Source: Escherichia phage KM01
Sequence record: PV018827
Length of the DNA: 64,000 bases
Direction: 5' to 3' (one strand)
Both the position numbers and the translations under genes were made by a program. The notes beneath the pieces were generated by a model. That model had not been told where the DNA came from. It ran no database searches and was given only the letters and a program-made list of their open reading frames with translations. Of this stretch, positions 52,724 through 52,870 are shown in pieces; the first letter of the stretch is position 1, and each line of letters begins with the position of its first letter.

Positions 52724-52870
52724 TTGGTTACAGGTGTAGGATTCGAACCTACGCTCGGACTCCCTAGCCATCACCAAAGGAATGCATCCAATGGGCATAC
52801 GGTCATTCGACCACGGGCGACTGCTTTACCGTAGACTCTGCATTACTGAGTCCCATAAGCTATACCTGTA
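52724..52870 (-). ncRNA. tRNA-like element: canonical T-arm, acceptor 3' strand and encoded CCA, but 147-nt span to the complementary 5' strand
   Basis: Minus strand ...GTAGG-TTCGAAT-CCTAC-ACCTGTA-A-CCA at about 52724-52752; perfect complement TACAGGT only at 52864-52870; no cloverleaf of normal length found by eye. Confidence 0.25.

Follow-up and report, generated by a model that had tools for sequence, protein, structure and literature searches.

Probable genes for oversized tRNA-like RNAs in Escherichia phage KM01 and related phages

What does a phage encode where the 3' end of a tRNA gene stands some 110 nucleotides (nt) away from its matching 5' strand? This question is raised by a locus of Escherichia phage KM01 (sequence record PV018827), within a stretch of 64,000 nt that was analysed as a whole (hereafter the window). 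A preliminary description of the window, made from the letters and their open reading frames (ORFs), had pointed to a tRNA-like element with an encoded CCA and an abnormal length, and had offered three explanations: a tRNA with an insertion or intron, a tRNA-derived structured RNA, or a 3' fragment of a tRNA. Our analysis identifies this element, hereafter E1, as a conserved phage RNA gene of 146 nt, in which the acceptor stem, T-arm and CCA of a tRNA are kept and the decoding half is swapped for extra hairpins. A second element in the window, E2 (115 nt), joins the same half of a tRNA to a different insert. We consider it rather probable that E1 and E2 are stand-alone genes for oversized, non-decoding tRNA-like RNAs, unrelated to each other and built on one design.

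The T-arm, the 3' acceptor strand, the discriminator and the CCA described for the minus strand are all present at 52752-52725. The 3' acceptor strand corresponds to 52735-52729, the discriminator A to 52728 and the encoded CCA to 52727-52725. The sole perfect 5' partner upstream is, as had been proposed, TACAGGT at 52870-52864, with 7/7 Watson-Crick pairs; the length is 146 nt rather than the 147 nt originally given, position 52724 being a flanking A. About 110 nt lie between this strand and the T-arm. Downstream of the CCA there is an A/U-rich trailer (AAUUGAAUAAUAG), followed by the ribosome-binding site (RBS) of the next gene. A custom scan of both strands for modules composed of a T-arm, 7 nt, any base and CCA identified two of them in the 64 kb, a tRNA-Arg and E1, against a mean of 0.14 in shuffled sequence. 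The tRNA frame of E1 is real and non-random. It exhibits a 7-bp acceptor stem, a 5-bp T-stem with a UUCRANY loop, a discriminator and the CCA. An anticodon arm (5-bp stem, 7-nt loop, U33, R37 and a conserved anticodon) is unsupported in E1.

The E1 alignment consists of seven distinct variants, all at least 91% identical, from which a consensus fold was computed by RNAalifold. It contains the acceptor stem (nt 1-7/136-142), the T-arm, hairpin 1 (18-23/33-38) and a group of central hairpins, one of which is hairpin 3 (77-84/90-97); a hairpin directly abutting the T-arm resembles a long variable arm. Over the seven variants, 97.9% of the cells of this model are paired. Double compensatory changes are observed at three pairs, one each in the acceptor stem (6-137, G-C in four variants and A-U in three), hairpin 1 (20-36, A-U to G-C) and hairpin 3 (84-90, A-U to G-C in the kuravirus XT32). 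The covariation score was reached by none of 500 shuffles, and sliding the partners by 1-3 columns left 29-40% of the cells paired. The remaining substitutions either fall in loops (nt 25, 63, 125 and 130) or turn a G.U pair into A-U, as at pair 18-38 of hairpin 1, which is G.U or A-U. The T-loop varies at nt 125 and 130 (UUCGAAC in the Klebsiella phage HS106, UCCGAAC in XT32), and in the 9-nt loop of hairpin 1 the heptamer UAAUGCA is invariant. The structure of E1 is thus under selection. Nucleotides 28-32 of that loop (AUGCA) are perfectly complementary to the hairpin 3 loop UGCAU, so that a kissing interaction between the two hairpins is possible; all five pairs are invariant, and covariation is therefore uninformative about it. 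The loop of hairpin 1 was also considered as the seat of an anticodon (NUA or AAU), and rejected: it is 9 nt long, lacks a U33 context and has each of the four bases at nt 25 in one variant or another. For the interior, the alternative helices 11-14/45-48 (D-stem-like) and 39-43/68-72 were compared with those of RNAalifold; they lie within 2.3 kcal/mol in invariant columns, so that either arrangement is possible.

The window belongs to a Kuravirus-type (phiEco32/SU10-like) podophage of E. coli, in which the genes around E1 are on the minus strand. The 2.4 kb around this locus match about 110 phage records, nearly all of them Escherichia or Shigella kuraviruses. E1 itself was found by blastn in 12 phage records with 92.8-100% identity, and is annotated in none of them. 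Phage YW01 lacks exactly 52711-52906, with 16 nt in their place, and phage Bas91 lacks 52711-52993. In the Klebsiella phages HS106 and GADU21 (annotated as Schitoviridae) and in the IMG/VR contig L129, the similarity to the window is confined to 52721-52873 (95% in HS106 and GADU21). There E1 forms one unit of the tandem array Asn-(Asp)-Pro-Tyr-E1-Ser-Gln-Ser, and its spacers are CCA-AAAT(T), as between the true tRNAs. E1 and E2 behave as discrete, horizontally exchanged cassettes. The gene-like borders, the slot in a tRNA array of another phage family and the compensatory changes together support the second of the three explanations, a tRNA-derived structured RNA. No match to E1 was obtained in 5,426 E. 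coli genomes. Of the exact-word patterns used to scan IMG/VR, the first was too generic and returned ordinary tRNAs, and the other two yielded one true homolog, L129, among chance matches. A metagenome scan identified three contigs with two distinct variants of E1; a scan of genome contigs found nothing.

A covariance model of E1 recovers all E1 copies with about 180 bits. Its top non-self match is a 124-nt RNA of the N4-like phages KP8 and PhAPEC5, which we call E1b (20.9 and 19.4 bits, E ~1e-5 to 1e-4); ordinary tRNAs score at most 14 bits, and the model matches neither E2 nor rnaC and rnaD of phage T4. E1b has the same type of design and termini as E1 (UACUGGU...ACCAGUA-A-CCA and UACCAGU...ACUGGUA-A-CCA), and, relative to E1, compensatory changes affect two of its acceptor pairs, 4-69 and 5-68, as well as its first hairpin. 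Full-length E1b is present in 43 N4-like genomes, unannotated or beneath a "hypothetical protein". Because changes in the distant 5' strand are matched by changes in the 3' strand, from G-C to A-U in E1 and with A-U, U-A and C-G at pair 4-69 in E1b, the view of the element as a 3' tRNA fragment is rejected. A motif CGGUAA(A)GC recurs at E1 nt 40-48 (52831-52823), in the loop of hairpin B of E1b and in the 5' part of another element, E3 (see below), the three being otherwise dissimilar. It could be a common tertiary or protein-binding motif, or a coincidence.

The preliminary description had mentioned a second T-arm-like sequence at about 54450-54470 that could not be folded into a cloverleaf. 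This T-arm is real (TCTGG-TTCGATT-CCAGA, 54473-54457) and is part of E2, 54447-54561(-), which does fold once the tRNA frame is imposed. The resulting structure has a 6-bp acceptor stem, a 3-bp D-arm whose loop contains GG, a rod, an 8-nt linker, the T-arm and A-CCA. E2 thus possesses the acceptor, T-arm, discriminator and CCA set of a tRNA, with an acceptor of 6 bp. No anticodon arm was found in E2; an irregular rod of about 57 nt (nt 24-80), capped by a GAGU tetraloop, stands in its place. Both elements keep the tRNA half recognised by processing enzymes, that is, an acceptor stacked on the T-arm, a discriminator A and an encoded CCA. Where a tRNA has its D/anticodon half, E1 carries a multi-hairpin domain of about 110 nt and E2 the 57-nt rod.

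E2 occurs in 29 phage records. Among kuraviruses it is found after either allele of tRNA-Arg(UCU) or is missing; the breakpoints lie at ...ACCA, and the sequence that follows is of four or more different kinds. E2 varies at four sites, each by a G-to-A change that is located in a loop or turns G.U into A-U in the tRNA-frame fold; two of the four would disrupt G-C pairs in the unconstrained minimum free energy (MFE) fold. The acceptor of E2 (GGGCUA/UAGUCC-A-CCA) is that of E. coli tRNA-Ala (GGGGCUA/UAGCUCC-A-CCA, a sequence that was verified for this comparison) minus G4-C69, with G3.U70 and A73 kept. An alanine-type tRNA-like domain (G3.U70, A73 and CCA) is present in E2 only, E1 having C3-G70. 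The G3.U70 pair is the main determinant for alanyl-tRNA synthetase (AlaRS), an enzyme that ignores the anticodon. From its sequence, E2 would thus be expected to accept alanine. The two tRNA-Arg(UCU) alleles that alternate at this kuravirus locus are unrelated: one begins with CGGGGCG... and has the HNH endonuclease gene upstream, and the other begins with GCGCUCU... (window 54574-54649(-) compared with L148:1450-1525, L149:1420-1495 and L150:1450-1525). The counterpart of the HNH ORF in Bas91 is annotated as a homing endonuclease. By analogy with segB of T4, the two alleles are consistent with endonuclease-driven allele replacement. The positions of these features are collected in Table 1.

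Table 1. Positions of the RNA elements and associated features
Feature	Position	Strand	Remarks
E1, oversized tRNA-like RNA gene	52725..52870	minus	146 nt; nt i = 52871 - i
E1 acceptor 5' strand UACAGGU	52864..52870	minus	nt 1-7; 7/7 paired with nt 136-142
E1 hairpin 1	52833..52853	minus	nt 18-38; 6-bp stem, 9-nt loop A-N-UAAUGCA
E1 hairpin 3	52774..52794	minus	nt 77-97; loop UGCAU
E1 T-arm GUAGG-UUCGAAU-CCUAC	52736..52752	minus	nt 119-135; stem invariant
E1 acceptor 3' strand ACCUGUA, discriminator A and CCA	52725..52735	minus	nt 136-146
E2, 115-nt tRNA-like RNA	54447..54561	minus	nt i = 54562 - i; starts GGGCTA, ends TAGTCC-A-CCA
tRNA-Arg(UCU), canonical	54574..54649	minus	called by ARAGORN and by Rfam (51.5 bits); E2 starts 12 nt after it
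HNH endonuclease ORF	54640..55062	minus	PF13392 HNH_3, 26.9 bits (cutoff 24.8); overlaps the 5' end of tRNA-Arg
E4, long irregular hairpin, possible internal pseudoknot	52901..52986	minus	33 nt upstream of E1
Rest of the ORF-free structured region, several hairpins	52987..53235	minus	95-99% identical among kuraviruses
Tag module, KP8	L158:1120-1298		
Tag module, PhAPEC5	L159:1125-1300		
Tag module, HK620	L160:~895-1010		
Tag module, Bas78	L161:~900-1000		

Several observations weigh against reading E1 and E2 as conserved, structured RNA genes. Their distribution is patchy: among the approximately 110 related genomes, E1 is present in 12 and E2 in 29. A metagenomic lineage of E1 (L151/L153; CYGL01003271, CYGL01000744) exhibits G18U, U22C and a change of CCA to UCA, all of which damage the model. 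Since the E1 variants are at least 91% identical, the covariation depends on three pairs. The E1 interior beyond hairpins 1 and 3 is ambiguous, with alternatives within 1.5-2.3 kcal/mol, and the z-scores of the MFE are unremarkable (-1.8 and -1.5). The substitution pattern of E2 would arise by chance with P ~0.07. As for the metagenomic variant, a decaying copy or assembly errors are both possible.

The patchy presence also speaks for the rival that survives best, an unlikely one in our estimation, according to which E1 and E2 are functionless, decaying tRNA debris (a fused tandem pair, for instance) carried by homing-endonuclease mosaicism in a hypervariable early region. The E1 length of 146 nt is close to 2 x 73 nt, a degenerate internal T-arm-like sequence (GGUCGAAUGACC) is present at E1 nt 59-70, the HNH endonuclease gene adjoins the tRNA-Arg/E2 locus, and the L151 lineage with its three disruptive changes has lost the CCA. 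Yet three E1 helices exhibit compensatory changes, the substitutions favour loops, and E1 is 91-100% identical across two phage families with dissimilar flanks. The cassette borders are exact, and E1b keeps the frame via double changes at pairs 4-69 and 5-68. Decay may describe the origin of E1 and E2, which is compatible with a present function.

It is quite unlikely that the two elements act in cis as punctuation of the early mRNA, recruiting RNase P to cut it and thereby controlling where the message of the downstream gene begins, how stable it is or how well it is translated. Both have an A/U-rich trailer after them and end 15-25 nt upstream of the RBS of the next gene, which encodes a sigma-70 region-4-like regulator (52385-52696) after E1 and a lipoprotein (54128-54427) after E2, and no promoters or terminators are close to them. 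In HS106, GADU21 and L129, however, the neighbours of E1 are tRNA-Tyr and tRNA-Ser, and no ORF follows it. For such a signal a minimal acceptor/T-arm hairpin would be enough, whereas it is the 110-nt interior of E1 that is best conserved, and relatives without E1 or E2 express the same downstream genes.

A third alternative involves the region directly upstream of E1. The interval 52871-53235 had been described as lacking ORFs, and it is essentially ORF-free, apart from two short minus-strand ORFs (43 aa with a GTG start and 31 aa with a TTG start). Its portion 52904-53235 is kept at 95-99% identity among kuraviruses as foldable RNA with several hairpins. In one of its elements, E4, 6 of the 26 predicted pairs exhibit compensatory double changes among the kuravirus, KP8 and PhAPEC5 copies. 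The apical GGCC loop of E4 could pair with an invariant GGCC in its 3' internal loop and form a pseudoknot. The segment 52904-53134 shares 81% identity with PhAPEC5 L159:906-1129, immediately after which that phage has a module resembling part of a transfer-messenger RNA (tmRNA). In KP8 and PhAPEC5 the E4-type segment is directly followed by this tag module, which matches the mRNA-like domain of tmRNA (33.2 bits with the Rfam permuted tmRNA model, against a threshold of 47); the alignment spans the resume region and the ...GCUGCUUAA end. The module has the form ...AUAAAU GCA AAC GAN GAN ... UAA, and its tag frames are equal in length and phase (ANDDVVLMAA*, ANEEAYLMVA* and, in HK620, ANEEMYLAVA*). 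It is present in 190 phage records, including N4-like phages, ~157-kb myophages, Salmonella phage 7-11, the P22-like phage HK620 and many siphophages of ~46-48 kb, and is almost never annotated. In the N4-like phages, E4 is located just upstream of the tag module, about where the pseudoknot PK1 sits in tmRNA. The tag module of HK620 lies in the pR'-tQ late leader and that of Bas78 follows a promoter-like TTGACA-17-TAGATT; both regions end in a conserved hairpin and then CCGGCCACCA.

With this homology of 52904-53134 to the segment directly before a tag frame, E1 might be the 3' tRNA-like domain of a larger tmRNA-like RNA starting in E4 and its neighbours. The order in KP8 is indeed E4, tag module, E1b, and ARAGORN with relaxed settings predicts a tmRNA at KP8 1105-1423, with the tag ANDDVVLMAA, ending at the CCA of E1b. 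We regard this reading as very unlikely. No tag module is found in the window or in the complete E1-bearing kuravirus genome ev_rybdy3, so that E1 is independent of the tag module; E1 also transfers without E4. E1 and E1b each have a 5' strand of their own that pairs perfectly and covaries, which the distal strand used by ARAGORN in KP8 does not. In PhAPEC5, E1b and the tag module are separated by other elements, and the E1 acceptor lacks G3.U70. No convincing tRNA-like domain with G3.U70 was found beside the tag module in KP8, PhAPEC5, HK620 or Bas78.

A check by tRNA finders and Rfam had been proposed together with the preliminary description. Run by default, ARAGORN leaves E1 and E2 uncalled, its sole call in the window being tRNA-Arg(UCU) at 54574-54649(-). 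Rfam gives no match on E1 or E2, either at the gathering cutoff or at E<=10, and beyond tRNA-Arg only chance-level matches (the family threshold of RF00005, tRNA, is 29 bits). The tRNAscan-SE-based annotation of GADU21 called the flanking tRNAs and passed over E1. The refutation test given with the preliminary description thus came out positive in part: the standard tools are silent, as a result of their own limits and not of a missing structure. The exception is ARAGORN with introns allowed, which at its default threshold calls the full length of E1 (52725-52870) as a tRNA-Val(UAC) with a 49-nt intron; relaxed thresholds return many plainly false calls, some inside coding sequence. That E1 is such a decoding tRNA-Val (intron after position 37, 22-nt variable arm) and E2 a tRNA-Asn(GUU) with a 22-nt intron, called at -ps80, is hardly credible, even though every variant keeps the proposed anticodon stem of E1 (31-35/92-96) 100% paired: pairing in the D-stem amounts to 50%, two of its positions being unpaired in every copy, the third base of the "anticodon" (nt 40) can be C, U or A in copies that share at least 91% identity, conservation is highest in the "intron" (nt 42-90), which holds the covarying pair 84-90, and lowest in the "exon" region, the anticodon stem overlaps two hairpins supported by covariation, and the -ps80 intron mode also "finds" intron tRNAs within coding sequence. 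A long variable arm is moreover not characteristic of tRNA-Val, and no bacterial enzyme is known that splices introns at position 37/38.

We return to E1 and E2 as probable stand-alone, non-decoding tRNA-like RNAs. No sigma-70-type promoter or intrinsic terminator was identified on the minus strand near E1 or E2, and the two would accordingly be transcribed within an early polycistronic RNA. Maturation of tRNAs in E. coli involves RNase P at the 5' end, endonucleolytic cleavage of the trailer and exonucleolytic trimming. After co-transcription with the early genes, E1 and E2 may be excised by this pathway: RNase P would cut at nt 1, an endonuclease would cut in the A/U-rich trailer, and exonucleases would trim to the encoded CCA, leaving stable RNAs of 146 nt and 115 nt. 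Lacking an anticodon loop, these RNAs would be tRNA mimics. With lower confidence, we propose that they act as decoys titrating a host factor that reads the acceptor/T-arm/CCA end, for which AlaRS and the tmRNA partner SmpB would be candidates in the case of E2. Alternatively, the tRNA frame could serve as a natural scaffold through which the inserted domain is matured and stabilised. In engineered tRNA scaffolds, an anticodon arm replaced by a cargo RNA gives a stable and correctly processed RNA in E. coli. E2 has the topology of such a scaffold, with an intact acceptor/D-arm/T-arm frame and a foreign rod, and E1 is more elaborate. To our knowledge, no natural phage example has been established, the known scaffolds being synthetic.

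Canonical tRNAs share with E1 the acceptor stem, the T-arm, the discriminator, the encoded CCA and the placement in tRNA arrays, but measure about 70-95 nt against 146 nt for E1 and 115 nt for E2, and E1 lacks the conserved GG of the D-loop. A closer likeness is found in the RNAC (species 1, 139 nt) and RNAD (species 2, 119 nt) of T4, which are also phage-encoded, bigger than tRNAs and located in a tRNA gene region. The T4 gene order is segB, tRNA-Arg, rnaD, rnaC. The window likewise presents a homing endonuclease gene (HNH instead of segB), a tRNA-Arg(UCU), an RNA of about 115-119 nt and, further on, one of about 139-146 nt. Like E1, rnaC has paired termini, and a canonical T-arm lies close to its 3' end. 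In contrast to the adjacent T4 genes, E1 is 1.6 kb from tRNA-Arg/E2, and the T4 RNAs, as annotated, lack the encoded CCA that E1 and E2 possess. Alignment detects no sequence similarity between rnaC/rnaD and E1/E2 (z 0.9-1.8). Since neither sequence nor model similarity is observed, the analogy is one of kind and homology is not shown. By this analogy, E1 and E2 can be regarded as unannotated counterparts in kind of the unexplained species 1 and 2 RNAs of T4, for which no role was yet known according to publications of 2010 and 2022.

For E2, comparison with tmRNA is also instructive. E2 shares with the tRNA-like domain (TLD) of tmRNA and with tRNA-Ala the G1-C72, G2-C71 and G3.U70 pairs, A73, the CCA and the T-arm. 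Its rod emerges at the position of tmRNA helix P2, and it has no anticodon and no tag. With its 6-bp acceptor and real D-stem, E2 is closer to tRNA-Ala than to tmRNA, and no tmRNA model matches it. The acceptor of E1 (U1-A72, A2-U71, C3-G70) is not of alanine type, unlike that of tmRNA. A survey of 2014 reported phage ssrA only in mycobacteriophages and Bacillus phage G (PMC4131195). The tmRNA of mycobacteriophage DS6A consists essentially of the TLD, and such molecules are reported to inhibit tmRNA, perhaps via SmpB titration (PMC4131195). By analogy, the DS6A molecule would be the closest functional precedent for E2.

In the literature, we found no description of tRNA-like RNAs of kuraviruses or N4-like phages, nor of the phage tmRNA-like modules. 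These loci reveal a blind spot of annotation: over 50 sequenced phage genomes carry E1 or E1b and 29 carry E2, yet the gene finders miss them, and the loci are left blank or covered by apparently spurious small ORFs. E1 and E2 supply covarying, mobile comparative material from more than one phage family for the stable RNAs of tRNA regions, a question open in T4 for about 50 years. The alanine-type acceptor of E2, without anticodon or tag, predicts alanylation and/or SmpB titration. Were E1 and E2 decoys for tRNA-directed host factors, they would be RNA-based tools of counter-defence or host takeover; the accessory early region that contains them is one in which anti-defence genes are often grouped. 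The tag modules, which occur in about 190 phage genomes and were in no case identified as ssrA by the survey of 2014, may prove more important than E1 and E2 themselves. A wider reading, tentative and on balance improbable, would combine E1, E1b, E2, the tag modules and other T-arm elements of ORF-poor "RNA islands" into an unrecognised, horizontally shuffled toolkit of translation-apparatus mimics. With it kuraviruses, N4-like phages and many other enterobacterial phages might manipulate tmRNA-SmpB rescue or blunt tRNA-directed immunity. This toolkit would comprise TLD-only decoys that accept alanine, oversized tRNA mimics without an anticodon, and RNAs that encode tags.

The RNA islands of N4-like phages are 1.4-2.4 kb long (KP8 L158:600-2433, PhAPEC5 L159:294-2682) and hold canonical tRNAs together with T-arm elements that finders miss or call tRNA-OTHER or tRNA-???. 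The annotated "tRNA-Leu" of KP8 at 956-1031 is called by neither ARAGORN nor Rfam. A further element, E3, is an insert of about 150 nt between E4 and E1 in some kuraviruses (XT32 L003:1054-1203, FH3, 1-6af and L151-L153), and is also found at KP8 L158:1501-1565 and PhAPEC5 L159:1509-1567. Its 3' part of about 65 nt ends in a T-arm-like hairpin (GCCAGG-UGGAAUC-CCUGGC) without CCA, and occurs in 127 phage records with up to 98% identity (N4-like phages, 40-kb and 60-kb Klebsiella phages, Salmonella phages); its 5' part matches the jumbo phages K64-1 and SP27. In N4-like phages, E3 directly precedes a 67-70-nt non-canonical "tRNA-OTHER". Small "hypothetical protein" coding sequences are annotated on the opposite strand over E1 (GADU21 L154:1500-1589), E4/E3 (XT32 L003:966-1136) and the tag module (Bas78 L161:855-1007), and are probably spurious calls covering RNA genes. 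Finally, the adjacent small ORFs 53419-53640(-) and 53650-53870(-) of the window are paralogs arising from a tandem duplication within the early region (68.6% identical over 121 nt), with the common pattern ...FWIK...GYITC.N...NG.VDG.RP...PQ..AK..GLVY*.

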